Shown: one piece after another, positions 47,038-63,990 of the stretch
How the letters are laid out: each line of letters begins with the position of its first letter
How positions within the stretch are numbered: position 1 is the stretch's first letter
Source: an uncultured Anaerolineales bacterium
Lineage (GTDB): Bacteria; Chloroflexota; Anaerolineae; B4-G1
Assembly (NCBI GenBank): GCA_964530325.1
Contig: CAZHAX010000001.1
Coordinates: 186,128-250,127 of the forward strand
Length of the DNA stretch: 64,000 nucleotides
Direction of reading: 5' to 3'
The notes under the pieces: model-generated
Told to the model about the DNA's origin: nothing
Seen by the model: the letters and a program-made list of their open reading frames with translations, nothing else
Databases searched by the model: none
Translations under genes and position numbers: made by a program

Positions 47038-47041
47038 CTGA

Positions 47042-47626: not shown

Positions 47627-47641
47627 TGGCCGTGTCCGGTT

Positions 47642-48130: not shown

Positions 48131-48260
48131 GTGAGTACCTCGATTCTCGGTGCTGTACCGGTGGGTTGTGCGACGCGCGGCGGCAGTTGGGCAGTTCGTT
48201 ACCGCCTCCAGCGCGGCCGTTCACTAGCGTCGCTCAGGTGTCAGGGTGCCTAGGCGATCG

Positions 48261-48752: not shown

Positions 48753-48929
48753 CACACTAACCTCCACTGCCAACTCGTGAGACCTGCACGCCACCGGACG
48801 CTACGTTGTGGGCGGATGCCCTCCAGGCGACACGGGTCCCAGCAGTATCCGCCTGGCTCGATCCTCGCGGTCGGTCCTGAACCTGCTCGACGCTCCACGT
48901 CCGTTCTCTGCGCTGACAACTGCACGCTG

Positions 48930-49424
48930 CTACTGTGCATCCTTTCTAGAGCTCCTGCCTGTCGACGTGCGACTGAGAACCGCCAGCATTTCTGTCTTGG
49001 TCATTGGCTCGGGAGCCGCTTTCGTGCCCGCTTGCTCACGCGGTTGTGTCTGCAGCAGGGCTCCTGCTGCTTTCATCTCCGCGATCATCTGCTCCAGCTT
49101 CCTGGCGGCGAGGTTTGCCGTGACGTTCAGAAGTGCCACGTTGATTTGGGCTATGCAGACCAGACATAGGCAGCCCTCTGTGCCCAGGGGTTTGAGTATG
49201 AGCCGGCCACCATCGTACATCAGGTCGATGTCCCCCATCTTGCTCTTCCCGTTCGTCTTGGCAGCAGCAACGATCTTCGCTACTGCCTCCATGACGGCTT
49301 GGGGGGGAGATGCCTGGCTCACGCCTGGCGACATCACGTGCTCCAAGAGCTTCCCGCCATCGGAGACGACAAAGGCGCCGATCACTCCATTAACTGCGCT
49401 GATGTCCATCAGGATGTTTCGCAT
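48930..49424 (-). CDS. Roadblock/LC7 domain protein, CxC/LNLTA subfamily
   Basis: MRNILMDISAVNGVIGAFVVSDGGKLLEH...CLCLVCIAQINVALLNVTANLAARKL. Confidence 0.65.
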   Translation of the reverse strand: MRNILMDISAVNGVIGAFVVSDGGKLLEHVMSPGVSQASPPQAVMEAVAKIVAAAKTNGKSKMGDIDLMYDGGRLILKPLGTEGCLCLVCIAQINVALLNVTANLAARKLEQMIAEMKAAGALLQTQPREQAGTKAAPEPMTKTEMLAVLSRTSTGRSSRKDAQ

Positions 49425-49448
49425 CTTGCACCGTCCTGCCTGCTGCGT

Positions 49449-49772
49449 CTAGCCAAGAGCTTCCCGCGCGCTCGAGGCGACTATCGCTGGTGAGGCTCTG
49501 TCCGCCAGGAGCAGACCTACGTAGTAGTCTGGCTGCTCCATTACGAGCACAACCTCGTTGCCAATCGTCACCGTGCCCCAGTCGAAGGGGCCGAGGGCGA
49601 GCGATTCGCTCGCCTGGCTCGCCGCGTTGCCAACGAAGACGGCGACAGCCCCTTCCTTGTCCGGACTGGCATCGTTGAGCTCGTGGGCCAGCACTATTCC
49701 ATCACGTGCAGCTATCACCACCCCGTCCACTCCATCGATCTTGCTCAACTTGGCGGCCAATTCCTGTATCAT
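49449..49772 (-). CDS. Roadblock/LC7 domain protein (minimal, 107 aa)
   Basis: KIDGVDGVVIAARDGIVLAHEL...WGTVTIGNEVVLVMEQPDYYVGLLL. Confidence 0.7.
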   Translation of the reverse strand: MIQELAAKLSKIDGVDGVVIAARDGIVLAHELNDASPDKEGAVAVFVGNAASQASESLALGPFDWGTVTIGNEVVLVMEQPDYYVGLLLADRASPAIVASSAREALG

Positions 49773-49844
49773 TCCGATGCCTCCCTTCAGCCTCCCGAGC
49801 CGTCTTGTCTGGACCGGCGCCGCCTGCCCGGATAGCGCGCTTAC

Positions 49845-50315
49845 CTAGGTCCAGAGATCGAGCACCTTCTCCAGGATGCCCTCGGTGCTCTGGGCCATGG
49901 CGGGCTCCCGCCCTGGCCCCTGCTCAGGGGATGATTGCTCTGGTATTGTCTTCCTCTTGGGTAGTTTCTTGATCATTCGTCCCAGCTTTCGGGCGGCCAC
50001 GTTGGCCGTCAGATTCACCTGCGACACGTCGGCGTGGGGAGCACACAGTATGCACAGGCAGCCCGAGCCGGAGACCTTGACGACCAGCCGTCCGTTGCTG
50101 CAGTGGAGGTCGACTTCGCCGACGTCAGACAAGCTCACGCTCTTCAAGCCGGTGACGATTTGGGCCACGCTGGACGCCGCGCACCCCTGTGCTGTACCGT
50201 TGCCGCTTCCGGGGGGCACCGCGACCGCGAGTAGCGCGCCATCCCCATCGCAGACGAATGAGCCAATCACTCCGTATATCGCGTTGATGTCACTCAGTAT
50301 GCTGTCCATCGCCAC
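49845..50315 (-). CDS. Roadblock/LC7 domain protein, CxC/LNLTA subfamily
   Basis: MAMDSILSDINAIYGVIGSFVCDGDGALLA...CLCILCAPHADVSQVNLTANVAARKL. Confidence 0.65.
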   Translation of the reverse strand: MAMDSILSDINAIYGVIGSFVCDGDGALLAVAVPPGSGNGTAQGCAASSVAQIVTGLKSVSLSDVGEVDLHCSNGRLVVKVSGSGCLCILCAPHADVSQVNLTANVAARKLGRMIKKLPKRKTIPEQSSPEQGPGREPAMAQSTEGILEKVLDLWT

Positions 50316-50328
50316 TCGTTCTGAGCTT

Positions 50329-51396
50329 CTAGTGCAAGGCTTGCTTGGCGCTGGCCGCTACGTTGGCGGCCGATGCCCTCTGGTTGAGCAGCATCCCTAC
50401 GAAGTAGTCTGGCCGCTCCATCAGCAGCATCTTCTCCTTGCCGAGCGCCACCGTGCCCCAACTGAAGCTGCCAAGAGACAGCGGCTTTCCCAGTTGGCCG
50501 GCGGCACCCAGCACGAGAACGGCTATGGAGCCCCTGTTTCCGGGCGCGTCATCCAACTCGTGGGCGACCACGGACCCGTCGTGCGCAACGACGACGACCC
50601 CTGTGACACCCTGTATATCCTTGAGAGCGCTGGCCAGGTTCGCGGCTACCTGGTCACCGTCGACTTCGGTCTCATCAGTGAGGAGCTCCAGGTCGACCAA
50701 GCCGGCCATCCCCTCGTCCATGCGGCGGGCGCCTTCCAGCAGCAGTCCGGACCAGCTGCCCTCGATCGTCCTCTTGGGAGCGGAGACGCCCATCTGCAAC
50801 TCGAATTCCCCCTCTTCCCAGGTCAGGAGCTCATAGACGGCATCCGCGCCTGTTTTCTTACCCAGGGCGGCGTGGACGACGTTGCCTTCGGCGAAGTAGA
50901 CCTTGCCTTCTTGGCCGGCCTGCCGGATCCGGAGTAGCGCCTCGTTCCGCTCTGCGCAGTTGATCTGCACGATGTTGGGCAGACTCAGGCTGCGCAGGTT
51001 GCCCTGAACGACCGCGCCACCCTTCGACTCCAGGATACGGCGCACCGCCGCCACCAGGGTCTTGGCATCGAGGGGCTTCTCCAGGAACTCGCAGGCGCCA
51101 AGCTGCAGGGCCTCGACTACGTTCTCCTTCGTGCCGTAGGCCGTGAGGATTGCGACTGAGGCCCGTGGGTTGTGCTCTCTGATCGCGGCCAGAAGCTTGA
51201 GGCCGTCCATGCCGGGCATCTTCAGGTCTGTGACCACGAGGTCGAAGTCCTCGCTCCGGTACAGCTTGATCGCGCTGGCGCCGTCCGAGGCTCCCTCGAC
51301 GGAGAAGCCTTCCAGCTGGAGTATCCTCTTGCACGTCTTGACCACGTTGGGTTCGTCGTCTACCACTAGAACGCGTTTCTGAGCCATTGCCACCAC
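50329..51396 (-). CDS. Response regulator receiver + DUF4388 (PATAN-like) + C-terminal Roadblock/LC7 domain
   Basis: REC (RVLVVDDEPNVV...LVVTDLKMPGMDG...KPL). The middle region LPNIVQINCAERNEALLRIRQAGQEGKVYFAEGNVVHAALGKKTGADAVYELLTWEEGEFEL matches the DUF4388 consensus as I recall it. The C-terminus IQGVTGVVVVAHDGSVVAHEL...WGTVALGKEKMLLMERPDYFVGMLL is a Roadblock domain closely related to 49449..49772. Confidence 0.75.
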   Translation of the reverse strand: MVAMAQKRVLVVDDEPNVVKTCKRILQLEGFSVEGASDGASAIKLYRSEDFDLVVTDLKMPGMDGLKLLAAIREHNPRASVAILTAYGTKENVVEALQLGACEFLEKPLDAKTLVAAVRRILESKGGAVVQGNLRSLSLPNIVQINCAERNEALLRIRQAGQEGKVYFAEGNVVHAALGKKTGADAVYELLTWEEGEFELQMGVSAPKRTIEGSWSGLLLEGARRMDEGMAGLVDLELLTDETEVDGDQVAANLASALKDIQGVTGVVVVAHDGSVVAHELDDAPGNRGSIAVLVLGAAGQLGKPLSLGSFSWGTVALGKEKMLLMERPDYFVGMLLNQRASAANVAASAKQALH

Positions 51397-51425
51397 TCCC
51401 TCATTCAGTCAGCTAACGCCTGCTC

Positions 51426-52455
51426 CTAGCCGTCAAGCTCCGGCGGAATGATTCCCTTTGCCACTGCCGATTCATAGTCCAGCAGCTCTCTGTCCTCCTC
51501 GTCTCCGTAGAGGTCCTGTGCCTCGAGTTCCTTCCGGCTGGGGCCCGGAGCCGGCGCGGCGGCGGGCCTGGCCTCACCTGATGCCTCAGACAGCACCGCA
51601 TCAAGCTCTGCCATCAGCGAGGAGCCGAACTCCGCGTCCAGTACCTGAGCGGGCACGCTGGCCGTGCTGTCAGCCAGCGTGTTCATCAGGCTCTCGACCG
51701 CTCTCCTGGTGTAGAGCCACACAAGCCCAATCCGGCTTGCCTGGGCCTTCCGATCGTAGACGATGGCCAGGAAGAAGTCCTCCCCCACGTTGGCGGAGTA
51801 GATCTCGTAGCGCGCACCCTCGTGGAAATTGAGGTTGATCGCATTGCCACTGCCGAAGTACTCGGCCAGCCCTCTGGCGGTAGCGAAGCCGCCTGCCAAC
51901 AGCGAAAGCAGGGCAGAGGGATCCGGCCCCAGCTGGCCCCCGGCCTGTGCCAGGCGCTGGCCCAGCATGTCCGCCAGATGTATCGACTGGGCGCCGATCT
52001 CACGCCGCAGCTCCTCCAGGTGCTTGGTGATCTCCTCAAAGGTCTGATCCGAGAGGATGACCAGGCCCGGTTGGCTCATCGCCTCGTCCGGAAGAGCCCT
52101 CTGGACCGCCTTCATGAGCACGTCCACCTTGAGGGGCTTGGAGATGTATCCGGCTACACCCAGGCTGCGGGCCTCTTCCTCGATCGCGCTGCTGCCGTAT
52201 GCGGTCACCAGAATCGAGCGCGTCTCCGGGCTGGAGGTCTTCACCTGCCGAATCAGCTCCAGGCCGCTGATCCCCGGCATTCTCAGGTCCGTGACCATCA
52301 GGTCCACGTCTTCCTTCGAGATGGCTTGCAGCGCCTCCTCGCCGGACTCGACTACCGTGACCCTGTAGGTCTGGTTCGAGCGCTCCAGCACCTTCTTCAG
52401 AAAGGCCGCTACCGACGGCTCGTCGTGCGCAATGAGGATGTGTTTCTGGGCCATT
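51426..52455 (-). CDS. Response regulator receiver + Roadblock-like C-terminal domain
   Basis: REC (HILIAHDEPSVAAFL...LMVTDLRMPGISG...KPL). C-terminal FHEGARYEIYSANVGEDFFLAIVY is Roadblock-like. ATG at 52455 is the internal Met of the track ORF. Confidence 0.7.
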
Positions 52456-52608
52456 TGCCTATATCTGCTCTCGCGGAAGCAGTACCGAGCCGTTTGGCCC
52501 TGGCTTCCGTCAGCATCTCTATCAACAATATAGCACAAGGGGCACGGTTTGTGGGTTCCGAGAACCTCCCACACAGGGTGCAGTTACGTTCCGGCAGGCG
52601 TAGCCTGC

Positions 52609-53457
52609 CTACTGCTTCTGATGGCTCTCGGGGGGAGGGGACGGGGCGCAGACAGCGTAGCCGCTGCCGCGCACCGTAAGGACCACGGGGGGGTCGTCCG
52701 GGCGGGGCTCCAGCTTCTGCCGCAGACGATGGATGTGCGTCCGCAGCAAGACCCGCGCATCGCGCTCGTCGAGTTCGTAGCCTCGAATGTGCAGGACGAG
52801 CTCCCGGCAAGAGATGACCCTGTCCCGGTGGCGGATGAGATACGCCAGGATGTCGAACTCGGTTGGCGTCAGCTCGACAGGCTGGCCACGCAGCACCACG
52901 AGGCGCCTCAGGCTGTCCACAGTCACATCCGCCACTTGGAGGAAACGCTCGACCGGAGCCTGAGCATCCGGCCGCTGGGGGCTATCCCTGAGAGTGACGA
53001 GGACTCTCTCCAGGAGCTTCACCGGCTCATCGTCGTGCAACCTGCGGCTGCGCTCCGCCAGGCCGGCCTCTACGGCTCTGGCGATTTCATCTGTGGAAGA
53101 CGGCTTGAGCAGATAGTCGAAGGCGCCGTGCCGGATGGCAACGATGGCCGAATCGAGCGAGCCGTAGCCTGTGAGGATGACAAAGACCGTGTCCGGGGCC
53201 ATCCTGCAGGCCCGCTGAAGAACGTCGGTCCCCTCCATGTGCGGCAGCTTGAGGTCGAGGACGACGAGATCGAAGATCTCAGATTCGATCTGATCCAACG
53301 CCGCCTTGCCTGTGGCCGCCTCACTAGCGTCGTACCCCATGTGGCGGAAGAGCCCGGTCAGCGTCCGGCGTATAGCCTGGTCGTCGTCCACCACCAGGAT
53401 TCGCGGTCGGGCCGTGGTCGAGCGCTCTAGACTCTCGGCCTGTCTTGAGGTGACCAT
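52609..53457 (-). CDS. OmpR-family response regulator
   Basis: REC (RILVVDDDQAIRRTL...LVVLDLKLPHMEG...KP) + trans_reg_C (LTPTEFDILAYLIRHRDRVISCRELV...LRTHIHRLRQKL...VLTVRGSGY). Confidence 0.85.
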   Translation of the reverse strand: MVTSRQAESLERSTTARPRILVVDDDQAIRRTLTGLFRHMGYDASEAATGKAALDQIESEIFDLVVLDLKLPHMEGTDVLQRACRMAPDTVFVILTGYGSLDSAIVAIRHGAFDYLLKPSSTDEIARAVEAGLAERSRRLHDDEPVKLLERVLVTLRDSPQRPDAQAPVERFLQVADVTVDSLRRLVVLRGQPVELTPTEFDILAYLIRHRDRVISCRELVLHIRGYELDERDARVLLRTHIHRLRQKLEPRPDDPPVVLTVRGSGYAVCAPSPPPESHQKQ

Positions 53458-53503
53458 CGCTACATCTTCCAGTCGAGCGTCCGGCCTTGCTGCGGGTATG
53501 GGT

Positions 53504-55117
53504 TCACGTCCGACCCGCAGGGATCTCAGCCTCTGCCTTCACAGGAAGCAGCACGGTGAACTCGGCTCCCTTGTCGAGTTCGCTCTCGACGGTGATCTCG
53601 CCCCCATGGCGCTCGACCACGTTGCGGCTGATGGCGAGGCCCAGCCCTGTGCCCTTCTCACGCGTGGAGAAGAACGGCTCGAAGATGCGTTCCAGATGTG
53701 CCTCTTCGATGCCGTGCCCCGTGTCTCGGAACTTCAGCGCTACACGCCCGTCGTCCGCAACGGCGCTGGAGACGGATACCGCGCCCCCGTCCGGCATGGC
53801 ATCGACGGCGTTCAGCACCAGGTTGATGACCACCTGCTCCAGCTCATCGGGCGCTGCCACTATGCTGGGCAGGTCGGGCGCCAGGTCTCGGTGTACAGAC
53901 ACGTCACGATGCTGCAAGTACTTGGCAGCGAGCGTGAGGACTCGGTCGATGATGGAGTTCACGTCCGTGGGCTCCATCTCCCGCCGAGGAGGACGCGCAA
54001 ACTCAAGTATGCTGGTCACCATGCCCATCAGCCGCTGGATCTCCTCATCGGCTATCTGCAGGTACTCCCTCTGCTCCTTGATCTCCAGGGGGAAGTCGAG
54101 CATCAGCTGCAGGCTGTTGTGGATGGCCTGGAGAGGGTTGTTGATCTCGTGGGCGAGCGAGGCGGCCAGGCGACCGGTGGCTGCCAGCTTGTCGCTCTGC
54201 ACCAGTTGGAGGCGGGACTGCTCGAGCAGGCTGCGCAGCTCTCGCTCCGCCTGATACAGTCGGGCGTTGGTGATGCCAATGGCGGCGGATCCGGCCAGCG
54301 TGGCCAGCAGCTCGATGTCGTGGTGGTCGAACTCGCCGGCAGCCTTGTTGACGGCCAGGATGGCACCGATCGTGCTGTCTTTGTACGACAACGGCACCGC
54401 CAACAGGGAACGGGTGGCCTCACCTGCCAGGGCGTCTGTTCTGTCCGAGAAGCGGTCGTCGCTCCGCGCGTCCGGCACCAATGCTGGTTCGCCGCTGGAC
54501 ACCACCGAGCCGGCGATTCCCTCATTGGAGGCGGCGGTAGACCCGATCGAAGGGCCGGCATCGGCCCCGGCCGCGGCGGCAACCCTCAGTTCGTCCGTGC
54601 CTCTCTCGAGGAGAATCACAGCGGTCGCCTCCGCGCCCAACATGTCCCTGGCTTCCGCCATGGCCAGGTTCAACACCTCATCCGGATCGAGAGTGGCAAT
54701 CATCGCCTGAGTGGCCCGACTGAGCGCGGTGAGACGCTTGCGGAATCGGCGCCCCTCCATCGCCCGCTGCACTGTCGACCGGATGACGTCGGCGTGGAAT
54801 GGCTTGGTGACGTAGTCGCAGGCACCCAAGCGGAGAGCATCTATCGCGTTCTCCACCGATGCGTAGGCTGTGAGGACTATGATCGCCACCTGAGGCGACC
54901 GGTCACGGATCTGCTTCAACACCTCCATGCCGTCCATATCGGGCAGCATCATGTCGAGGACCGCCACGCCGAACCGCCCAGCCTCCATTGCCTTCAAGGC
55001 GTCCTTCCCGCTGGTGGCCAAGACGATCTCGTAGCCCAGGGGCGAGAGGCATTCTCTCACCAGATCGCACATCCCCCGGTCGTCGTCCAGAATGAGGACC
55101 CTGTCTTGGCTGGCCAT
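53504..55117 (-). CDS. Hybrid sensor kinase: N-terminal receiver + GAF + HisKA + HATPase_c
   Basis: REC (RVLILDDDRGMCDL...VAVLDMMLPDMDG...KPF). GAF-like (DPDEVLNLAMAEARDMLGAEATAVILL...LLAVPLSYKDSTIGAILAVN). H-box LAASLAHEINNPLQAI. N/G boxes (VINLVLNAVDAM, RDTGHGI, GTGLGLAISRNVVERHGGEI). The antisense ORF 53306..55141 is rejected. Confidence 0.85.
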   Translation of the reverse strand: MASQDRVLILDDDRGMCDLVRECLSPLGYEIVLATSGKDALKAMEAGRFGVAVLDMMLPDMDGMEVLKQIRDRSPQVAIIVLTAYASVENAIDALRLGACDYVTKPFHADVIRSTVQRAMEGRRFRKRLTALSRATQAMIATLDPDEVLNLAMAEARDMLGAEATAVILLERGTDELRVAAAAGADAGPSIGSTAASNEGIAGSVVSSGEPALVPDARSDDRFSDRTDALAGEATRSLLAVPLSYKDSTIGAILAVNKAAGEFDHHDIELLATLAGSAAIGITNARLYQAERELRSLLEQSRLQLVQSDKLAATGRLAASLAHEINNPLQAIHNSLQLMLDFPLEIKEQREYLQIADEEIQRLMGMVTSILEFARPPRREMEPTDVNSIIDRVLTLAAKYLQHRDVSVHRDLAPDLPSIVAAPDELEQVVINLVLNAVDAMPDGGAVSVSSAVADDGRVALKFRDTGHGIEEAHLERIFEPFFSTREKGTGLGLAISRNVVERHGGEITVESELDKGAEFTVLLPVKAEAEIPAGRT

Positions 55118-55151: not shown

Positions 55152-56480
55152 CTACTGCTGCTGACTTACAGGTACGTATATGCGGAAAGGCAGCGGCTCG
55201 TAGGCCTGGTTGGTTCCCAGTTCACCGCTCTCCGAGCCTCCGCCAATTGCGTAGACCGTTCCCTCCAGCACCGCCAGCCCGGGGCCGCGCCACTCGCCTA
55301 CGAGAGGCGTCTCGATGGGACTCCAGGAACCATCAGATGGGCTGTACCGCTCGTTGAAGCCAAGGTAGGTTGTCTCCCCTGCCGCACCGATGGCGTAGAG
55401 CTGACCTGCCAGAGGCGCCAGACCGAGCCCCGCTCGCCCAACGGCCATGGAGGGGCAGGAACCCCAAGTTTCGGATGCGGGGTCAAATACGGAGCAGGTC
55501 CTGAGCTCCTGGCTGCCATCGTAGCCGCCGACTACGTAGATGAGGTTTCCCAGCGCGGCGGCGGAGGCGAAGGCGCGCCCGGAGTCCATAGGCACCGAAC
55601 TGGACCACCGGTCGGCGTCCGGATCGTATACGTAGGTGTCCGCTGTATAGCGGCTGCCGTCCCACCCGCCGAATAGGTATATGCGCCGATCGTAGACCGC
55701 GAGCGCGGATGCGCAGCGGGCCTCGGGCATAGCGCTGGCCTGCCGCCAGGAATCGGTCACTGGGTCGTAGACCTCGACCGAGCCCACGGGATTGGAGTCC
55801 TGGTCGCAGCCACCGGGCAAGAACACTTCCCCCTCCAGAATGGCGGCCGACACTCCGAAGACGGGCGTCGGCTTGTCGCGGCCGCGCGTCCACAGGTCGT
55901 TTGCTGGGTCGTACCGCTCGACTACGGCGGTCGGTCCGTCTTCCGTCAGACCAGCGATGGCCAGGACCTGGTGCTCCAAGCCGACTGCGGCAAGGTAGGA
56001 GCGCCTGGTGGGCATCTGGGCACGCTCCGACCAGCTCGAATCCTGCGCTACGGCCATTCCGGGCTGGGACAGGCCGCCCTGCTGCCCAAGCGGGAGCTCC
56101 GCTGCATCGTCCCCGTTCGCGCCGTTGGAGGGCCCAGTGGCCGCAAAGGATGCAGCCACCAGCAGTGCTGCAGCCACGAGCGTCACCCGTCTCCAGCCTG
56201 GCAGGGGCGCCGCGATAGACGCGGGCCGGCCGGGCCCAACCTTCCCTGCCTCCTCCGGAAGGGCCCCCTTCAGGCGGACTATGCCTTCCCGCACCGCTAT
56301 GACGGTAGCCTCTGTGCGCGATTCGGCGTTCAGCTTGCCGAACACGTTGCGCAGGTGCACTTTCACCGTGTTAGCGCTGATTCCGAGGCGGTAAGCGATC
56401 TCCCGGTTGGTGACGCCTGTGGCCACCATCTCCAGGATCTCGATCTCGCGCTGGGTCAGGGATTCGCGCAGCTCGTCCAT
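55152..56480 (-). CDS. LuxR-family HTH + single TM + extracytoplasmic Kelch-repeat beta-propeller protein
   Basis: Start MDELRESLTQREIEILEMVATGVTNREIAYRLGISANTVKVHLRNVFGKL (LuxR HTH). TM (VTLVAAALLVAASFAA). Five or more Kelch-like repeats (AAVGLEHQVLAIAGL, AAILEGEVFLPGG, ALAVYDRRIYLFGGWDG, AAALGNLIYVVGGYDG, LAPLAGQLYAIGA). Confidence 0.7.
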   Translation of the reverse strand: MDELRESLTQREIEILEMVATGVTNREIAYRLGISANTVKVHLRNVFGKLNAESRTEATVIAVREGIVRLKGALPEEAGKVGPGRPASIAAPLPGWRRVTLVAAALLVAASFAATGPSNGANGDDAAELPLGQQGGLSQPGMAVAQDSSWSERAQMPTRRSYLAAVGLEHQVLAIAGLTEDGPTAVVERYDPANDLWTRGRDKPTPVFGVSAAILEGEVFLPGGCDQDSNPVGSVEVYDPVTDSWRQASAMPEARCASALAVYDRRIYLFGGWDGSRYTADTYVYDPDADRWSSSVPMDSGRAFASAAALGNLIYVVGGYDGSQELRTCSVFDPASETWGSCPSMAVGRAGLGLAPLAGQLYAIGAAGETTYLGFNERYSPSDGSWSPIETPLVGEWRGPGLAVLEGTVYAIGGGSESGELGTNQAYEPLPFRIYVPVSQQQ

Positions 56481-56594
56481 GCCTTCATGCGGTCCGCCTA
56501 GCGGGGCTCGGGAAGAGTGCCATCCCGTGTGGCGCCGGCGGGCACTGCCGGGCTCCCCATAAAGACGGGCAGGAAACGGGTTCTTGCGAGAGCG

Positions 56595-56604
56595 ATTATA
56601 GCAC
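56595..56604 (-). promoter_or_regulatory. Extended -10 promoter GTGCTATAAT for the LuxR-Kelch gene (minus strand)
   Basis: Reverse complement of gattatagcac. Same 10-mer as at 27226 and 27257. Confidence 0.35.
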
Positions 56605-56801
56605 ACGGGTCGCTGCGGGCAAGAGCCTGGCTGCTTCTGCCCCGCGAGTTGCCGCCGACGGCCCTCCCGGCGGCCACCAGCCGTCTTGCGCCTGTCAGTT
56701 GCGCTCGACCACAGAGTGGGACCTCGCCCGGCGCACGGCCAGCGGTGCACACAGGGCAGGCCTGTCCTGGCACTCCATGCTATGATCGTGCGCGCGGCCG
56801 G

Positions 56802-57653
56802 TCAGTCGAGATGGACCGGAGTCGCGCAAGCGTTGTCAAACCAAGCCCCTGGTCCTTGCGCAGATGCCTCGCCGCGACGCCCTGGCCTGTCAGGCGGCCC
56901 CAGGCTCTCCTGCAGCAGCGCCCTCAGCACTTGAGGTAGGTTCGTTATGATGCCGTTGACGCCCAATCCGATCAGGCGGCGCATCTCGGCTGGCTCATCC
57001 ACGGTCCAGGCCTGCACTTGCATCCTGCGGCGCCGGGCCCGGCTGATGTACAACCGGTCGATGACCGTATGCTCAGGGTGGATAGCCGATACCGCGAGCA
57101 GCGACCCGAGCAGCATGAGTAGCCGCTGGCAGGGGAAGGCGTGGCTGGCCAGCATCCCGAGCTGGAGGTGCGGCGCCAGCCTCTTGGTCTGCAGCAGCGC
57201 GAACGGGTTGAAGGAGGAGATGAGTACGGAGCTGCCCAATCTGAGCCTCTCTACCTCTGCCACGGCAGCGGCGGGCAGCCGGGTGTCGAGCGCGGAGGTG
57301 CTCTTGAGCTCGAGGTTCAGCAGCAGGCGATCCTTGGCCCACGTCAGCAGCTCCTCCAGCGTGGGTATCTGCTCGCGGCGATAAGCAGCGTCGAACTGGC
57401 TGCCCACGTCGATTGCCTTCAATTGCTCCAGAGTCAAGTCTGCGACGCGAGGGTTGCTGCCGTCAGGCAGCAAGACGGTGGAGTCGTGAATCACCACGGG
57501 AACGCCATCGCCGGAGAGGCGCACGTCGAACTCGACTCCGTCCGCGCCGAGCTCGTACGCCTTGCGCACGGCAGACAGGGTGTTGGGTGGGGCGACGCTG
57601 CTGGCACCGCGGTGCGCGATGTTGAGCACCCGCCCGTCGCCAACGGCGCCCAT
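56802..57653 (-). CDS. Glycerophosphodiester phosphodiesterase (GDPD) family
   Basis: LNIAHRGASSVAPPNTLSAVRKAYELGADGVEFDVRLSGDGVPVVIHD is the GDPD HR(G)/E/D motif set. Start ATG 57653 overlaps the stop of the upstream AAA gene by 1 nt. Confidence 0.75.
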   Translation of the reverse strand: MGAVGDGRVLNIAHRGASSVAPPNTLSAVRKAYELGADGVEFDVRLSGDGVPVVIHDSTVLLPDGSNPRVADLTLEQLKAIDVGSQFDAAYRREQIPTLEELLTWAKDRLLLNLELKSTSALDTRLPAAAVAEVERLRLGSSVLISSFNPFALLQTKRLAPHLQLGMLASHAFPCQRLLMLLGSLLAVSAIHPEHTVIDRLYISRARRRRMQVQAWTVDEPAEMRRLIGLGVNGIITNLPQVLRALLQESLGPPDRPGRRGEASAQGPGAWFDNACATPVHLD

Positions 57654-59002
57654 CAGATCTCGACGAAGTAGGCCTCGCAGGCGCGATCGACCAGCTCCTT
57701 GCTCAACGTAGGTTCGACGCTGAGGTAGCGAGCGATATCGATGAGCTGGTCGATTATGTCGCGTGGGTGACACGACCTCTTAGACCGGTCCGGCTTGATG
57801 TAGTGTTCCTGGATCAGATAGGCAAGGCCCTCGTCATTGTAGGGGATACCCTTGGACTGGCAGGCTCGGCGGAAGATCTCTCTGTACTCGTCCCAGTTCG
57901 GATCCTTGATCTCGATCTTGTGACGGATGCGGCGCAGGAATGCCTCGTCGACCAGGTCGCGCGGCGCCAGGTTGGTGGCGAAGACAATCAAGAGGTCGAA
58001 TGGGATCTCGATCTTGCGCCCAGTGTGGAGCGTGAGGTAGTCGACCCGCTTTTCCAGAGGGACGATCCAGCGGTTGAGCAGGTCGCGAGGGCGGGCCTGC
58101 TGCCGGCCGAAGTCATCGATGAGCAGCATGCCGCCGTTCGCCCGAACCTGGAAGGGAGCCTCGTAGTACTTGTTGTGCTCGTCGTAGACCAGATCGAGTG
58201 ACTCCAGAGTGAGTTCACCGCCGGTAATGATGACCGGCCTGCGGATGCGTACCCACCTCGGATCGTGTGTCCTCTCCGTAGTGTCCGTACCGTTCGCCCG
58301 TTGGTGATTGACGTAGTCGAAGATCCTGATCACCTGGCCGCCGACCTCGATGGCGTACGGGATGTACAGCGAATCCTTCAGTATCATGTCTCCGATCGCC
58401 TCGGCGATCGCCGTCTTCCCGTTTCCGGGGTAGCCGAACAGGAAGACGGAGCGACCGGAGTTGACCGCTGGTCCCAGGCGGGCGAATGTGTCCTCGCCGA
58501 CGACCAGGTGGCCCAATGCCTTGCGCATTGTCCGCTGGCGAATAGTGACCTTGCTCAAAGGCTGCTTGTCGATCGCGCTGATGTACGCTTCCAGCGTGGC
58601 CGGTGCCGGGCCGGTGTACTGGCCGCGCTCCATGGCCTCGCGGGCCATGCCCCGCCCTTTGTCTGCGATGGCGTACTGATAGGCCGCCTCGGCGAACCCT
58701 GCTGCGCCTTTCACTTCGCACAGCTGTTCCCGCTTCATCGCCTCCAGGATCTGATCCACGACGCCGGAATAGGGGAGCCGCAGCCGCTCGGCGAGCTCGT
58801 AGCCGGAGAGGCTGCTCTCCACGTACAGCGTCTTGATGGCTAGTTCCGTCAGGAAGGTCAGGCTCAGCCCGGTGTCCTTGATGGACTTGGGCATCGGAGG
58901 TACGTACATAGGCGGGGCGACAGGTAGCGAGTCATCCGTGCCTACCTCCACCTCCTCCTGCCTCTCCTTCTCAGCAACCATAACTTGGCTTCCTGCCCAC
59001 AC
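57653..59002 (-). CDS. AAA+ family ATPase of unknown function with N-terminal winged-helix-like region
   Basis: Walker A VFLFGYPGNGKTAIAEA. Walker B MLLIDDFGRQ. Sensor region LIVFATNLAP. Arg finger region AFLRRIRHKIEI. No specific subfamily recognised. Confidence 0.6.
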   Translation of the reverse strand: MWAGSQVMVAEKERQEEVEVGTDDSLPVAPPMYVPPMPKSIKDTGLSLTFLTELAIKTLYVESSLSGYELAERLRLPYSGVVDQILEAMKREQLCEVKGAAGFAEAAYQYAIADKGRGMAREAMERGQYTGPAPATLEAYISAIDKQPLSKVTIRQRTMRKALGHLVVGEDTFARLGPAVNSGRSVFLFGYPGNGKTAIAEAIGDMILKDSLYIPYAIEVGGQVIRIFDYVNHQRANGTDTTERTHDPRWVRIRRPVIITGGELTLESLDLVYDEHNKYYEAPFQVRANGGMLLIDDFGRQQARPRDLLNRWIVPLEKRVDYLTLHTGRKIEIPFDLLIVFATNLAPRDLVDEAFLRRIRHKIEIKDPNWDEYREIFRRACQSKGIPYNDEGLAYLIQEHYIKPDRSKRSCHPRDIIDQLIDIARYLSVEPTLSKELVDRACEAYFVEI

Positions 59003-59265: not shown

Positions 59266-59307
59266 CGGACTGCTGATTTCGCTCTCGTATCAGCAGCCAC
59301 CATTTGC

Positions 59308-59673
59308 CTAGACCCCGATCTCTCTCAGGCGTTCCTCGCCGATACCGAAATGGTGGGCCAGCTCGTGCCGGACAACCCTCTTCACGAGAGCGCGCATCTG
59401 CTCCTCGGTGTGGGAGTGGAGCTCAATGGGTCCCTGGTAGATGCTGATCTTGTCCGGCAGAACGAGCACGTAGCCCTGCGTTCGATCCGTCTGGGGGATG
59501 CCGCGATAGAAGCCCAGAACGTGAGCCCGGCTGTGAGTACCTGCAAGCCGCACTGTCTCTGGGTCCGGCCAATCCTCGACGACGATGTCTACGTTGGCCA
59601 GCTTATCCAGGAACGCCTTCGGCAGCTCCGCGATCGCATCGACGACGAGGCGCTCGAAAGATGCCCGGTCCAT
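59308..59673 (-). CDS. Zincin-like metallopeptidase (DUF1025-like) family protein
   Basis: C-terminal VVRHELAHHFGIGEERLREIG matches the family HExxHHFG motif. Start at the internal Met MDRASFERL. Confidence 0.65.
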   Translation of the reverse strand: MDRASFERLVVDAIAELPKAFLDKLANVDIVVEDWPDPETVRLAGTHSRAHVLGFYRGIPQTDRTQGYVLVLPDKISIYQGPIELHSHTEEQMRALVKRVVRHELAHHFGIGEERLREIGV

Positions 59674-59812
59674 ACTGGTGATTATACAATGGGAGCGCCA
59701 TTCGGGCACGATCGGTCCGCGCAGCCGTTCCTGCTTCTCCCCATGTCCGCGCTTTGTAGGTATAATGTAGCTACCCTCCAGGCTCGCCCCGGAGCCGGCT
59801 GGCGAGGGTTAT

Positions 59813-59838
59813 GTAACATCTGCCGCGTCACAAACGTT
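59813..59838 (+). promoter_or_regulatory. ECF-sigma-type autoregulatory promoter GTAAC-N17-CGTT upstream of sigma/anti-sigma fusion gene
   Basis: atGTAACatctgccgcgtcacaaaCGTTacaggagcagaaccgaagcgATG. SD aggag. GGTATAAT at 59759-59766 lies further upstream. Confidence 0.45.
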
Positions 59839-59858
59839 ACAGGAGCAGAACCGAAGCG

Positions 59859-61526
59859 ATGAGCGGTTCGCCGGACACCCGGCTCGTCCGCCAGGCGCAA
59901 GGCGGCGACAAAGCTGCCTTCACAGAGCTCTTCACCCGCTATGAGAGCCGCATCTTCGGCTACGTGTACCGGATGGTGGGTGACCGAGCCTGGGCCGAGG
60001 ACATAGCCCAGGAGGCGTTCATCCGGGCACATCAGAAGCTGGGGCGGTTGGGGCCGCCATATGACTTCAAGTCTTGGGTGTACCGGATCGCAGGCAATGT
60101 GGCCATCGACGAGCTCCGTCGCCGCCGGCAGGAAGTGCCTCTTCCGGATTGGGACGCCGGAGAGGCCACGGCGCCTGAGCCTGCCGATCAGCATCGAGAA
60201 GGTGACCCCGAGCAGCAGGCCGAGCTGGCCGACGTGCGCGCTTCGGTGTGGCGAGCGCTTCATCAGCTTCCGGATAGCTACCGCCAGGTTCTGTTGCTGC
60301 GGGAACTGGAAGGGCTGTCCTACTCAGAGATCGCGGCCGCGGCGGCGATATCGCTGGACAACGTTCGGGTCACCCTCCACCGGGCCAGGCTCCAGTTCCG
60401 TGAGCTCTATGGACTGCAGGTGATGGTCGAGGAAGGAAGAGGCGAGTGCCACGAGCTGGACGAGCTGCTCTCTGCATTCACCGATGGAGAGCTGGACCGC
60501 TCGACGCGCAAGCGAGTCAAGGATCACATCGCCTCCTGCCCTGAGTGCCAGGAGAAGCAGCGCGACCTGCTCCGCGTCGCCGCCCTGCTGGGCGCACTTG
60601 TGCCGCTATTGCCGCCCGCAACGCTGGGGCCTTCATTCCAGGCCCGCCTGGCCGACGCCCCTGCTCCGGAGAGCCTGCCGGCAGGGCAAGGCGGGGGCGG
60701 GGCGGCTGGCGGCGTAGGAGGAGTGGCCGGCAAGGGTTCGATGCCTCCGTGGGGCTGGGCTCTGGCCGCTGGCGGTGCCGTAGTGGTCGTCGGCGTGATC
60801 GTCCTCGGCGTCCTGATCGCTATTCGCTCAGGCATCTTCGGTGGGGCTGCGCAGCCACTCAGCCCTACCCCCACTTCCTACGCAGAGCCCCGACCGACTA
60901 CGCCGACCCCCTCCCCGTGGGAGCCAGCACCGAGCGCCACCCCTTCGCCGCTGCCCGGTCCCCAGGTTGACTTCGGGGCCAGCGCGCAGTCGATCCAGGC
61001 TGGCGATTGCCTTGTGGTCCAGTGGCATACTTGCGGCGTGGATGGCGTCTACTTCGACGGCCAGCCCGTTTCCGGTTCCGGCTCTCTATACGTCTGCCTC
61101 TGCACCGCTCGGACCTTCACGCTCGACGTCGTGTTGCCCGGAGGCGCGCACGACATCCGGGAGCTTACCATAGATGTGCAGGGCGAGTGTGCCACGGATA
61201 CTCCGACTCCAGATCAGCAACCTCCGCCCGCTCCTGTGCTGATTGAGCCGATAGACAGGGAGCCGCTGTCGTGCCGTTCCACGGCGACGCTGGTGTGGGA
61301 GGCGATCAGTGACCCCTCCGGAATAGCTGGCTACTACGTACGACTCGAGGTAGACCTCTATACGGCGCCGGGCGAATCGTGGGATTGGGGGCCCACGAGT
61401 GGAACGCAGCAGGAAGTGCCGGTTGTCTGCGGCATCCCCTACCGCTGGGCAGTGCGCGCCGTCGACGGAGCGGGAAACCCCGGTCCCTGGTCGGAGTTCG
61501 GGCAGTTCTCTGTACAGCGCCAGTAG
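59859..61526 (+). CDS. ECF sigma factor fused in one polypeptide to zinc-finger anti-sigma (zf-HC2), a TM helix and a Pro/Thr-rich + Ig-like extracytoplasmic domain
   Basis: Sigma70_r2 (FTELFTRYESRIFGYVYRMVGDRAWAEDIAQEAFIRAHQKL). Sigma70_r4 (LPDSYRQVLLLRELEGLSYSEIAAAAAISLDNVRVTLHRARLQFRE). ZAS motif HIASCPECQ. TM (GWALAAGGAVVVVGVIVLGVLIAI). PT linker and Cys-containing beta domains. Confidence 0.8.
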   Translation: MSGSPDTRLVRQAQGGDKAAFTELFTRYESRIFGYVYRMVGDRAWAEDIAQEAFIRAHQKLGRLGPPYDFKSWVYRIAGNVAIDELRRRRQEVPLPDWDAGEATAPEPADQHREGDPEQQAELADVRASVWRALHQLPDSYRQVLLLRELEGLSYSEIAAAAAISLDNVRVTLHRARLQFRELYGLQVMVEEGRGECHELDELLSAFTDGELDRSTRKRVKDHIASCPECQEKQRDLLRVAALLGALVPLLPPATLGPSFQARLADAPAPESLPAGQGGGGAAGGVGGVAGKGSMPPWGWALAAGGAVVVVGVIVLGVLIAIRSGIFGGAAQPLSPTPTSYAEPRPTTPTPSPWEPAPSATPSPLPGPQVDFGASAQSIQAGDCLVVQWHTCGVDGVYFDGQPVSGSGSLYVCLCTARTFTLDVVLPGGAHDIRELTIDVQGECATDTPTPDQQPPPAPVLIEPIDREPLSCRSTATLVWEAISDPSGIAGYYVRLEVDLYTAPGESWDWGPTSGTQQEVPVVCGIPYRWAVRAVDGAGNPGPWSEFGQFSVQRQ

Positions 61527-61552
61527 GCTCTGTGACTTGAAGGAGGCAAGGA

Positions 61553-62644
61553 ATGGCGAACAAGGAGCAACGGACAAGGATCGCCGCGCTGGCAGTCATT
61601 CTTCTCTCGATCGTGGCCTGCAACTTGCCGGGTCAGGATACTCCTGAGCCCACGCCCACGGACTACGCGCCAACCGGCACGGCAACGCCGTCGCCGGAGC
61701 CGGAGCCCTCTGCCACGCCCACGGAGGATGCGTGCGTGCCGAATGCGGCCTTTGTCACCGACGTGACTATCCCCGACGGCACCACGCTGGCGCCCTCCGC
61801 TTCTTTCATCAAGACGTGGCGGGTGGAGAACAGCGGCTCCTGTGCCTGGGAGCCGGGGACGGTGCTAGCTTTCGTCTCTGGTGATCAGATGGGAGGGCCG
61901 GCTTCCTTGACTGCCGGCGCCGTCGCTGTCGGGGCGGACACAGATCTGAGCGTGGAGCTGGTGGCGCCGTCTGCACCCGGGAGCTACCAGGGCCGGTGGC
62001 GACTGGAATCGTCAGACGGCCCGTTCGGCCCGACGCTGCTGGTGAGCATAGTCGTCGGTACGCCGACCTCTACTTCAACGCCGGCCTGCGTCGCGCCCGA
62101 CAGCGCCCTGGCATCGATACTCACTATCGCCCAGGACGCGGGCCACAACCCGGGCTGCCCCATAGGCCCTGCCTTCACCGTCGACGGGGCCATACAGCTG
62201 TTCGAGACGAACCCGGAGAACGCCAACCCGCACGCAAGAATGAGGGGCTTCATGATCTGGCGTTCCGATGAGGCCGTGATCTACGCGCTGGGAAGTGGAT
62301 GGGCGTCCTACATGCCGTCCCACGATGGGGATGTGCTCCACGTCTACGAGGATGACTGGGCGGAGGGGATGCCCGCCATCCATCCTGACTGCGCCTCGAT
62401 GAGCGTGCCGACTGGATATGTCCTGCCCCAGCGAGGCTTTGGGCGGGCGTGGTGCGTGCACTCGCTTGGCGACAGCACCGAAGTTGGCTGGCCCACGCAT
62501 CCGGAGACTGGAGTGATTCTGCAGGTCCAGCCTACACGGAACGGGGCGCTAATCAGGGTTATGGCCCACCCTTGGGGTATTACCTGGTACTTCTCACTCG
62601 ATATCCTGGGCGGTCGGTGGTATTCAATCAGCACTACGCCGTAG
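61553..62644 (+). CDS. Lipoprotein with NBR1-like Ig domain and C-terminal globular domain
   Basis: Lipobox LLSIVAC. PT linker. FVTDVTIPDGTTLAPSASFIKTWRVENSGSCAWEPGTVLAFVSGDQMGGP resembles the Nbr1 FW/Ig-like domain. Confidence 0.55.
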   Translation: MANKEQRTRIAALAVILLSIVACNLPGQDTPEPTPTDYAPTGTATPSPEPEPSATPTEDACVPNAAFVTDVTIPDGTTLAPSASFIKTWRVENSGSCAWEPGTVLAFVSGDQMGGPASLTAGAVAVGADTDLSVELVAPSAPGSYQGRWRLESSDGPFGPTLLVSIVVGTPTSTSTPACVAPDSALASILTIAQDAGHNPGCPIGPAFTVDGAIQLFETNPENANPHARMRGFMIWRSDEAVIYALGSGWASYMPSHDGDVLHVYEDDWAEGMPAIHPDCASMSVPTGYVLPQRGFGRAWCVHSLGDSTEVGWPTHPETGVILQVQPTRNGALIRVMAHPWGITWYFSLDILGGRWYSISTTP

Positions 62645-62664
62645 CGGACGGGGGCGGGAACAGA

Positions 62665-63672
62665 CTAGAGTGCCAGCTCGACGTCGAGGGCGGACAGCAC
62701 CTCGTCTATGGGGTTGATCACGGTGGCTGCCTCGGACCCGGCGAAAAGCAGCCCGACGACGCGGCGATCCGTATCCAGGATGGCGGCGCCGGAGTCGCCT
62801 GGCTGGCTCATCGGTCCCGCCAGCATCTGGCCGGAGAACATAGCGGCTGGGCCGTGGTAGTCTATGCGGACGGTAGCGTCGATCTGCGTAATGGTGCCGC
62901 GTGTGTGCCCCGTGGTTCGACCCGTCTTCTGGACGTGGGTGCCGAGTGTGGCGAGGCCGATGCCGGACGGACGGCCGATAGACAAGATCTGGTCGCCGAG
63001 CAGGCCCTCCGAGATGGGGCGGGCCAGCGCGGCGTCAACGCTGTTCAAACCGGGCGTGCAGCGCACAGCTTCGAGTCTGTGGCTTGATTTGAAGGCCCCG
63101 GCGACGTAGTTAAGCAGCTTCGCGGCCCAGCTGGCTATTGGGCACTGAGCCTCCGCGGTGCCGAAGTCGAGCGGAACGTAGTCAGCCAGGTAGGCGACGA
63201 CGTCGCGCGCTGTGCCGCCATCTACCGGCCCGGGTTGCAGGATCGGGTCGCCCTCATGCCCCTTGTTGGAGTCGGCCAGCACGTGGTTGTTCGAAAGCAT
63301 GAAGTGCTCGCCTCCCCGCCGGACCAGGCAGCCGAACGTTCCGGTCGTGGTTCGGTAGTGGCCCACCGATACACCAGGCGGCACTACCGGCCGCCACGAG
63401 TCCCGCGGGCCCGGCCGGAAGGCGCGTAGATTTCCGATTTCGACGACGTCCGTCCGGATACCGCCAACCGTCTGGGGAACGAGGTCAGCCGGCGACAGCG
63501 CAGATATGGCCAACTTGCGCGTCACGGAAACGACAAGGCTTAGCTCGTCAGTCGTGGCGCCATTCGTAACCTTGTAGCCGAGACCAACTCCCACGACATT
63601 GCGCTTCGCCAGAAGCTGGCGAACGTGTGATCTGAGGGCCTGCCTGGCCTGTGTCACGATCAGCTTAGCCAT
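62665..63672 (-). CDS. Chymotrypsin-fold (S1-like) serine peptidase with about 90-aa N-terminal accessory domain
   Basis: His context FMLSNNHVL. Ser context MSQPGDSGAAIL (GDSGx). N-terminal domain NVVGVGLGYKV...ELSLVVSVTRKL. Confidence 0.6.
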   Translation of the reverse strand: MAKLIVTQARQALRSHVRQLLAKRNVVGVGLGYKVTNGATTDELSLVVSVTRKLAISALSPADLVPQTVGGIRTDVVEIGNLRAFRPGPRDSWRPVVPPGVSVGHYRTTTGTFGCLVRRGGEHFMLSNNHVLADSNKGHEGDPILQPGPVDGGTARDVVAYLADYVPLDFGTAEAQCPIASWAAKLLNYVAGAFKSSHRLEAVRCTPGLNSVDAALARPISEGLLGDQILSIGRPSGIGLATLGTHVQKTGRTTGHTRGTITQIDATVRIDYHGPAAMFSGQMLAGPMSQPGDSGAAILDTDRRVVGLLFAGSEAATVINPIDEVLSALDVELAL

Positions 63673-63726: not shown

Positions 63727-63990
63727 CTAGCCTGCGGCAAGCTCGCCCACCGCGCGGACGTCGACCGGGACCCCGTCCAACTCTTGGGGCAAGATGTCGT
63801 CCGGGTCCAGCGCGCAGGCAGGCAGCTTGTCAGTCACCGAAACGACGATCGCCAGCTCGCCCGTCGACTGCCCGTCTTGCTCCTGCACTCCGATGCCAAC
63901 TCCGACGACGTTAGCCTTGTCCAACAACTCGCTCTCGTGTGCTTCTTTCACCGAGCGCACGAGATCCAGCCTTTCGTCTCGCTTGGTCAT
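63727..63990 (-). CDS. Small protein homologous to the N-terminal accessory domain of the adjacent S1-like peptidase
   Basis: NVVGVGIGVQEQDGQSTGELAIVVSVTDKL parallels NVVGVGLGYKVTNGATTDELSLVVSVTRKL of 62665..63672. Complete 87-aa ORF with ATG at 63990. Confidence 0.5.
   Translation of the reverse strand: MTKRDERLDLVRSVKEAHESELLDKANVVGVGIGVQEQDGQSTGELAIVVSVTDKLPACALDPDDILPQELDGVPVDVRAVGELAAG

Follow-up and report, generated by a model that had tools for sequence, protein, structure and literature searches.

Fused ECF Sigma/Anti-Sigma Regulators

In certain bacteria, an extracytoplasmic function (ECF) sigma factor and its anti-sigma factor are parts of one polypeptide. Such fusions with a zinc-binding anti-sigma (ZAS) domain have been described as exclusively actinobacterial, comprising the groups ECF48, ECF52, and ECF53; all three are predicted to act by proteolysis (PMC8999054). 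ECF52, exemplified by SCO4117 of Streptomyces coelicolor, is defined by an ECF core, a zinc finger, a transmembrane (TM) segment, a Pro-rich extension, and a C-terminal binding domain; SCO4117 has two promoters, and its truncated form activates its own expression (PMC5826349). The sole fused protein with experimentally shown release is IutY of Pseudomonas putida (ECF243, FecI/FecR type), which is cleaved by Prc and then by RseP (PMC8999054). The gene considered here, at positions 59859..61526 of a 64,000-nucleotide stretch of DNA from an uncultured Anaerolineales bacterium (contig CAZHAX010000001.1; hereafter, the whole stretch is called the window), encodes a ZAS-type hybrid of sigma and anti-sigma factors. 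The locus represents a new, large Chloroflexota family of this already described kind of regulator. An original prediction, made from the letters of the window alone, treated the covalent fusion as a departure from the rule and overstated its novelty, given the earlier descriptions of ECF52, ECF48, ECF53, and IutY (PMC5826349, PMC8999054).

Domain Architecture of the Fused Protein

According to both the list of open reading frames (ORFs) and the raw sequence, the gene is one unbroken frame of 555 codons without an internal stop. The G+C content at its third codon positions (GC3 = 0.75) is typical for the genes of the window, the overall G+C content of which is 64.7%. The features of the gene are given below with the evidence for each (AF2, AlphaFold2 model; pLDDT, its per-residue predicted local distance difference test; Ig, immunoglobulin; FN3, fibronectin type III).

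59859..61526, + strand: whole fused gene, 555 aa plus stop; ATG start, TAG at 61524-61526
59928..60128, + strand: sigma region 2, residues 24-90 (Pfam PF04542 Sigma70_r2, E 3.7e-18; AF2 helices at 18-88)
60135..60200, + strand: disordered sigma2-sigma4 linker, residues 93-114 (pLDDT <50)
60243..60392, + strand: sigma region 4, residues 129-178 (Pfam PF08281 Sigma70_r4_2, E 1.4e-14)
60411..60434, + strand: fusion junction, residues 185-192, LQVM189VEEG (alignment to unfused pairs)
60447..60656, + strand: class I anti-sigma domain with the ZAS motif, residues 197-266 (Pfam zf-HC2, invariant ligands, AF2 helices)
60657..60752, + strand: cytoplasmic linker, Gly/Ala-rich, of low complexity and variable length (composition, conservation, pLDDT <50)
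60753..60827, + strand: single TM helix, residues 299-323 (Kyte-Doolittle peak 2.86, AF2 helix, conservation)
60834..60962, + strand: extracytoplasmic Pro/Thr-rich linker (stalk), residues 326-368 (composition, conservation, AF2)
60963..61181, + strand: ectodomain 1, Ig-like beta sandwich, residues 369-441 (AF2 pLDDT >90; invariant Cys 384, 413, 415, 444)
61239..61514, + strand: ectodomain 2, FN3/Big_7-like, residues 461-552 (AF2 pLDDT >90; invariant Cys 472, 524)

The matches to Sigma70_r2, Sigma70_r4_2, and zf-HC2 (the latter at residues 197-231, E 5.9e-11) all exceed the Pfam gathering scores. Sigma70_r2 and Sigma70_r4_2 are the only sigma regions recognized by Pfam, with neither sigma1.1 nor sigma3, as is characteristic of the ECF group (group 4); the ECF superfamily model TIGR02937 (NCBIfam) is matched with 109 bits against a cut-off of 42.9. 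The ZAS signature H-x3-C-x2-C reads H223-IAS-C227-PE-C230 and is accompanied by an upstream ligand: C197, located 26 residues before H223, is likely the fourth ligand of zinc.

The Kyte-Doolittle scan revealed one strong hydrophobic segment (residues ~298-326). Beyond it, the C-terminal part of ~230 aa consists of the Pro/Thr linker followed by two beta-sandwich domains, the ~190 residues of which hold seven Cys, six of them invariant. Hence, the in-frame order of ECF sigma, ZAS domain, TM helix, and Pro/Thr-rich, Cys-containing extracellular region, as initially predicted, is borne out by the single ORF, the Pfam domains, and the lone hydrophobic segment.

Conservation of the Fusion

The same fusion is common to about 70 database relatives from Anaerolineae metagenome-assembled genomes (MAGs); the named close relatives and the genome loci all come from Anaerolineae, Thermoflexia, or Chloroflexi MAGs. 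Related proteins and loci are designated below by P and L numbers, respectively. A 100%-identical protein of 555 aa (P0001) is encoded by a single 5,755-bp JGI contig and is counted here with no claim of independence from the source of the window. Further relatives display 78% (560 aa), 70%, and 66% identity, followed by dozens at 49-55%, all of equal length and with the same set of Pfam domains.

The in-frame junction is present in all 30 aligned full-length orthologues, which share the invariant residues C197, H223, C227, C230, M189, and W298 as well as Cys 384, 413, 415, 444, 472, and 524; the pair G305-G306 in the TM helix is near-invariant. The fusion is regarded as genuine because the in-frame junction, with invariant residues, recurs across the relatives. 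The absence of a stop or frameshift between the sigma and ZAS parts, on which the original prediction depended, is thereby confirmed.

A wider HMMER search with residues 1-270 returned 213 clusters at 50% identity (E<=1e-30). About 130 of the best 150 cluster representatives (320-1363 aa) match without a break through residues ~250-265, i.e., across the sigma/anti-sigma junction; the few named among the representatives are Anaerolineales and Dehalococcoidia MAGs. To judge from these matches, the sigma/ZAS fusion architecture is very common among uncultured Chloroflexota.

Junction and Origin of the Fusion

More distant relatives (28-38% identity; L046, L049, L052, L058, L082, L096, L099, and others) possess a separate sigma ORF of ~155-200 aa followed by a second ORF, which begins between 26 nt before and 22 nt after the sigma stop, with several ATGA overlaps. 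The motif H-x3-C-x2-C is found near residue 30 of this second ORF in 14 of the 16 unfused loci examined. In BLASTP alignments, the unfused sigma ORFs cover query residues 1-184, and the separate anti-sigma ORFs, starting from their own residues 3-8, align with the query from residues 193-198 onward; this makes the window protein collinear with the products of an ordinary pair of sigma and anti-sigma genes. Judging from its sequence, the fused gene appears to have arisen by the joining of adjacent sigma and anti-sigma genes. The codon of M189 (60423-60425), a residue invariant in 30/30 orthologues, stands at the position of the anti-sigma start codon of the unfused pairs and may be a relic of that start codon left by the fusion.

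In a rough neighbor-joining tree without bootstrap, the actinobacterial fused proteins form an outgroup, and the other fused proteins branch in among the unfused ones. The Chloroflexota fusion family is apparently independent of the actinobacterial ones. At the same time, the junction sequence (Y-LQV/A) looks alike in the ECF52-like actinobacterial proteins P0096 and P0112, and given this similarity the Chloroflexota and actinobacterial fusions may share a common ancestry.

Comparison with Known Systems

The window protein and ECF52 have an identical domain order: sigma core, zf-HC2/ZAS, TM, Pro-rich stalk, and C-terminal binding domain. Both feature two promoters, one of them autoregulated (those of the window being predicted), and proteolytic activation is predicted for both. 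Still, ECF52 has been described from Actinobacteria only; the window family comes from Chloroflexota, all of its named relatives being Anaerolineae, Chloroflexi, or Dehalococcoidia MAGs. ECF52 carries an NPCBM carbohydrate-binding module, in contrast to the tandem Ig/FN3 ectodomain of the window protein and the Nbr1-FW ectodomain of its sister clade (see below). The motif proposed for SCO4117, CSGYN-17-SRHA, also differs from the GTAAC-N17-CGTT of the window. To judge by its sequence, the window protein is not a member of ECF52 because its sigma core is SigW/AlgU/RpoE-like and just 25-27% identical to the actinobacterial fused proteins P0096 and P0112 (both ECF52-like) and P0115; its identity to the unfused sigmas of other phyla is 36-48%. 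It had been allowed from the outset that the protein might fall into a group with well-characterized fusions, and this came half true: the architecture is a known one, and membership in the ECF52 core does not hold.

Like IutY, the window protein is one polypeptide, with an ECF sigma in its N-terminal part and an anti-sigma that crosses the membrane once in its C-terminal part. The two differ in that IutY has an anti-sigma of the FecR type and receives its signal from a TonB-dependent outer-membrane receptor, whereas the anti-sigma of the window protein is of ZAS class I; Pfam revealed neither a FecR domain nor a TonB-dependent receptor in the window protein and its scanned neighbors.

The best PDB sequence matches are all ECF sigmas, the closest solved relatives being AlgU, SigW, and RpoE. 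In structure, the top match is SigW from the SigW-RsiW pair of Bacillus subtilis (5wuq); SigW also ranks among the best matches by sequence and in NCBIfam. Its partner RsiW, a ZAS anti-sigma that spans the membrane once and has a zinc site of structural function, is eliminated through cleavage by site-1 and site-2 proteases. The pair differs from the window protein in consisting of two separate proteins, and its ectodomains are unrelated to those of the window protein. The window protein is not SigW, since it reaches 127.6 bits with the SigW equivalog PRK09641, below the cut-off of 209 (119.9 against 243.1 for TIGR02948), and no NCBIfam equivalog cut-off was reached, SigW coming out best. The promoter recognized by SigW, TGAAAC-N16-CGTA, resembles the tGTAAC-N17-CGTTa of the window.

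Promoter of the Fused Gene

Two promoter elements can be discerned upstream of the gene:

59813..59838, + strand: ECF-type promoter, -35 GTAAC at 59813-59817, 17-nt spacer, -10 CGTT at 59835-59838 (sole exact match in the window; conserved)
59761..59766, + strand: TATAAT, a possible housekeeping-type -10 within GGTATAAT, 52 nt upstream of the ECF -35

The motif GTAAC-N17-CGTT ends 20 nt before the ATG at 59859. Taken by itself, the bare pattern is weak evidence, since a window is expected to contain 0.21 matches, and one or more turned up in 21 of 100 shuffles. It is the conservation of the motif that carries it far beyond chance: the exact sequence is kept, with divergent spacers, at 23 of 24 fused-orthologue loci (the remaining one has ATAAC), 39-59 nt before the start of the tblastn match, itself located at the start codon or no more than a few codons from it. 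The related loci, 183 kb in total, contain 38 exact matches, without exception on the strand of the sigma gene, compared with ~0.6 expected on both strands at the rate of the window. Each match is situated either directly before the sigma gene or at a position further downstream; in the second case, most sites fall into the gap between the sigma stop and the following gene, which is mostly a gene for an FW-domain lipoprotein (see below). The consensus of 17 distinct sigma-proximal sites is tGTAAC-N17-CGTTacAGGAGTa, and that of 11 distinct downstream sites is GTAACAA-N15-CGTTnCAG. The ECF-type promoter predicted initially is thus upheld by its conservation in the relatives. With a -35 containing AAC and a -10 containing CGT, it has the sequence features of promoters of autoregulated ECF genes, and it is probably autoregulated by its own sigma.

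The site in the window is a near-palindrome (GTAAC...GTTAC) with one mismatch to its own reverse complement. An inverted-repeat operator of a dimeric regulator was considered and rejected: the relatives keep CGTT alone, and the next bases vary (CGTTAT, CGTTTC, CGTTCC). A search for further members of the regulon within the window gave seven one-mismatch matches against 3.75 expected, and four against 1.6 with a shortened pattern, none of them convincingly placed.

As for the upstream element, the window has GTATAAT at 59760-59766. G/TGTATAAT occurs in 10 of the 20 related loci examined (L001, L002, L026-L030, L033, L034, L044), at a distance of 28-55 nt before the -35; these ten loci either give a full-length tandem-Ig match or, in the case of the truncated L034, have the same promoter spacer. 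The TATAAT element may represent a second, basal housekeeping promoter; a scan for sigma-70 promoters over 59200-63800 found no full -35/-10 pair.

In L001 and L002, a conserved CTGGAAC-N5-TTGCAAC, absent from the window, is located ~140 nt before the sigma start. It resembles a sigma-54 -24/-12 element, but its GG-GC spacing is one base short, and it probably lies inside an upstream coding region.

The FW Lipoprotein and the Exchange of Sensor Domains

The gene next to the fused one encodes a lipoprotein with an FW domain of the Nbr1 type:

61553..62644, + strand: Nbr1-FW lipoprotein, predicted to be co-transcribed; lipobox IVAC, Pro/Thr linker, FW domain at residues 72-168, ~180-aa C-terminal domain

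This gene begins 26 nt past the sigma stop and has AGGAGG as its ribosome-binding site. The FW domain is recognized by Pfam (PF16158, E 5.4e-27), with PDB matches to the FW domains of ILRUN and NBR1. For the ~180-aa domain that follows it (62090..62641), Pfam gave no match even at E<=5; the domain is conserved both in FW paralogues and where the sister clade has the FW protein as a fused ectodomain.

Ten loci have one to three FW homologues after the sigma gene, nine loci of the window type (L001, L002, L026, L027, L029, L031-L033, L044) and one FW-fused (L038); in L028, a downstream flank of ~3 kb is devoid of an FW homologue. Several of the FW-lipoprotein homologues have the promoter motif directly upstream. 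The FW-lipoprotein genes are predicted members of the regulon of the fused sigma because GTAAC-N17-CGTT recurs upstream of them.

In a sister clade (L036-L043; P0049, P0051, P0054, P0057), the whole mature FW protein constitutes the ectodomain of the fused sigma/anti-sigma. The proteins of this clade are ~70% identical to the window protein over residues 1-264, and their fused FW part corresponds to residues ~53-353 of the window lipoprotein. In a third clade (P0005, P0012, P0037, P0040, and others), yet another C-terminal part is present. Collectively, these alignments indicate that the cytoplasmic module has been kept while the sensor was exchanged at least three times, and that the FW protein has two links to the system, as a predicted target and as a sensor of an alternative kind. 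The original prediction, which named the lipoprotein and the convergent proteases as potential signal or processing partners, is right in linking the former to the system, considering its conservation downstream, the motif copy in the relatives, and its presence as a fused ectodomain in the sister clade. It is weak for the proteases, which lack a signal peptide and are syntenic in two of ~9 loci (see below).

A similar logic is known from SigI-RsgI of Clostridium thermocellum, where the ectodomain of the anti-sigma is homologous to modules of the proteins regulated by the sigma; likewise, the FW protein is either a product of the predicted target gene or a fused sensor. The differences are that SigI is not an ECF sigma, that RsgI is a separate protein, and that its sensor modules are carbohydrate-binding modules (CBMs).

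It is conceivable, if rather doubtful, that the Nbr1-FW lipoprotein serves as an extracellular co-sensor, docking on the tandem-Ig ectodomain or competing with it to control cleavage; the sister clade has the same protein fused on. If true, the circuit would monitor itself, with the sensor and the surface protein under its control being exchangeable modules, much as in CBM sensing by RsgI/SigI. Bacterial FW domains, for which to our knowledge no function is known, would also gain a first role, that of ligand-sensing parts of transcription regulators.

In the metagenome contigs L041-L043 (at ~5950-6130), the FW-type fused gene is broken in the TM/Pro-rich linker by two successive frameshifts (frame 0 to 1 to 2); in L038, it is intact and encodes 689 aa. 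Either the gene could really be split there, or the low-complexity, GC-rich DNA could have been misassembled. A comparable split was reported for S. clavuligerus (PMC5826349). PF22233, considered as an extra sensor domain of the relatives, was rejected, the match being that of a PhyR sigma-like model to sigma4.

Structure Model

The AF2 model was obtained with an alignment of 30 sequences (mean pLDDT 74; pTM, the predicted template modeling score, 0.43) and comprises the following parts:

residues 7-88: sigma2 helices
residues 93-114: disordered linker
residues 117-196: sigma4, with a long helix 166-196 directly entering the anti-sigma helices
residues 198-266: anti-sigma, five short helices (198-205, 214-226, 228-237, 240-247, 256-266)
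residues 275-307: disordered Gly-rich linker (pLDDT <50)
residues 299-323: TM helix
residues 323-365: disordered stalk (pLDDT <50)
residues 369-441: beta domain 1
residues 461-552: beta domain 2

The best Foldseek matches in the PDB are SigW chains of the SigW-RsiW complex (5wuq, 5wur), with a TM-score of 0.83-0.84 over the whole SigW chain; the scores are 0.37-0.50 for RNA polymerase-bound ECF sigmas and for the RpoE-RseA and AlgU-MucA complexes. In the model, sigma2 and sigma4 take the compact arrangement of RsiW-bound SigW, which supports, though does not prove, inhibition in cis.

Proposed Mechanism and Alternatives

The locus probably encodes a one-polypeptide ECF sigma/ZAS anti-sigma transmembrane switch, inhibited in cis and freed by regulated proteolysis. 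By analogy with the described systems, the cytoplasmic N-terminal sigma2-sigma4 module would be held inactive by the adjoining zinc-binding anti-sigma domain and tethered to the membrane by the Gly-rich linker and the single TM helix; the Pro/Thr stalk would display two disulfide-stabilized Ig/FN3-like domains outside the cell. A signal from outside, possibly together with the co-expressed Nbr1-FW lipoprotein, would trigger regulated proteolysis in a certain order: trimming of the ectodomain, intramembrane cleavage at the Gly-containing TM helix, and removal of the anti-sigma remnant, yielding free sigma. The freed sigma would then direct RNA polymerase to GTAAC-N17-CGTT, i.e., to its own promoter (positive feedback) and to the promoters of the FW lipoproteins. 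Of this picture, the present analysis establishes the order of the domains, the conserved fusion, its collinearity with unfused pairs, the conserved and restricted position of the promoter motif, and the tie to FW proteins; inhibition in cis, release by proteolysis, the nature of the signal, and recognition of the promoter by this sigma are inferred.

Substrates of site-2 proteases (RseP/RasP) need helix-destabilizing residues. Regulated intramembrane proteolysis releasing an active sigma fragment is considered the most likely route because the single TM helix contains a near-invariant GG and because IutY provides a precedent (PMC8999054). Cis inhibition and cleavage have precedents in IutY with Prc/RseP, in RsiW, and in the predictions for ECF48, ECF52, and ECF53 (PMC8999054, PMC5826349, PMC7406223). 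Several points weigh against this mechanism. Scanning of 27 ORFs of the window with Pfam yielded no gene for a site-1 or site-2 protease, and the serine proteases next to the locus seem to be cytoplasmic. The evidence for a cis-inhibited conformation is an AF2 model with the above mean pLDDT of 74 and pTM of 0.43. A redox- or zinc-responsive switch would likewise be compatible with the complete Cys/His set of zinc ligands, and, due to the covalent sigma4/anti-sigma junction, degradation of the anti-sigma would have to halt precisely.

Such a redox or zinc switch would operate without proteolysis: oxidation or loss of zinc at C197/H223/C227/C230 would collapse the anti-sigma in an intact protein, leaving the ectodomain with a role in anchoring or modulating only. 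RsrA and ChrR are precedents for collapse of the anti-sigma domain freeing the sigma. All four potential ligands are invariant in the 30 orthologues, and the 26-residue gap between C197 and H223 equals that between C11 and H37 of RsrA. Soluble ZAS proteins are often redox sensors, but approximately half of the membrane-bound class I anti-sigma domains carry the motif, which in RsiW is structural rather than sensory (PMC7406223). The ectodomains, strongly conserved yet swapped between clades, point to sensing outside the cell, and a sigma that is still tethered would need to function at the membrane. On balance, a conformational switch of this type seems unlikely.

In another, quite improbable alternative, the sigma is active while tethered, in the manner of ToxR or CadC: a signal-induced conformational change or dimerization of the ectodomain would release sigma2/sigma4 from the anti-sigma domain, and RNA polymerase would be recruited to the membrane. 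We know of no sigma factor acting in a tethered state, which counts against this alternative. The Gly-rich linker (~267-298), long, flexible, variable in length, and with pLDDT <50, could give the sigma module the necessary reach; yet the junction between sigma4 and the anti-sigma is linkerless in the AF2 model (helix 166-196 running into the helix at 198), which would hinder simultaneous binding of RNA polymerase. FW domains are fused to other DNA-binding modules in the XRE-FW bacterial regulators (PMC3357945), which agrees with activity in a tethered state, but IutY requires cleavage by RseP (PMC8999054).

There is very little chance that the ORF gives two products, with internal initiation at M189 additionally providing a free membrane anti-sigma, so that the system would partly be a two-protein one. 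The invariance of M189 in 30/30 orthologues, exactly at the start position of the unfused anti-sigma, speaks in favor of it; still, no well-spaced Shine-Dalgarno sequence precedes M189, the invariance of which may reflect packing at the junction, and the retention of the fusion in many lineages would be left unexplained. Finally, although a 1-nt error could fuse the unfused relatives, which often overlap by ATGA, and although L041-L043 show that frameshifts occur in the GC-rich linker of this gene family, an artefactual joining of a normal sigma gene and a normal anti-sigma gene by a missed stop or sequencing frameshift is effectively refuted by dozens of orthologues at 49-78% identity that have this junction in frame and spanned by invariant residues, along with the typical GC3 of the ORF and the identical P0001 on record (subject to the above reservation about its independence).

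Other Genes in the Window

The fused gene and its lipoprotein neighbor are flanked by the following genes:

62665..63672, - strand: NAL1-like serine protease (GDSG, NAL1_N, Trypsin_2), convergent to the sigma gene, without a signal peptide
63727..63990, - strand: small stand-alone NAL1_N protein, convergent to the sigma gene, without a signal peptide
59308..59709, - strand: small Zincin_1 (PF06262) metallopeptidase-like protein, divergent from the sigma gene
57653..59002, - strand: 449-aa ATPase with marginal AAA matches and a weak match to the anti-phage ATPase IteA, divergent from the sigma gene

NAL1 refers to the plant NARROW LEAF 1 type. The convergent proteases were downgraded as candidate site-1 proteases, considering the lack of a signal peptide, the weak Trypsin_2 match of 62665..63672 (28.1 bits against a cut-off of 27.6), and the synteny of the NAL1 gene pair in L002 and L044 only, out of ~9 loci with enough flank. 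The Zincin_1 gene and that of the AAA-like ATPase were rejected as partners, as they stand beside the sigma gene of no relative.

Elsewhere in the window, a signaling cluster (46606..55117, - strand) contains an MglA-like small GTPase gene between two Roadblock/LC7 (MglB-like) genes, together with a response regulator-Roadblock fusion, a response regulator with DUF4388, an OmpR-type regulator, and a hybrid REC-GAF-histidine kinase. Next to it (55152..56750, - strand), a LuxR/GerE helix-turn-helix is fused to a multi-blade Kelch beta-propeller in a protein of 532 aa, an unusual regulator architecture. The region 27241..35925 (+ strand) encodes very large TadE/TadG-like pilus-associated proteins of 1274 aa (TadE, Big_1, CARDB) and 702 aa (Tad, VWA), suggesting a Tad/Flp pilus locus.

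Significance of the Family

The finding leaves the understanding of sigma/anti-sigma regulation unchanged. What the family offers is a clean predicted promoter, a small predicted regulon of FW lipoproteins, and the swapping of sensor domains on a conserved cytoplasmic module. It represents a compact, testable one-protein transmembrane switch, which could serve as an orthogonal part for synthetic biology, and provides a first functional handle on the bacterial Nbr1-FW domains.

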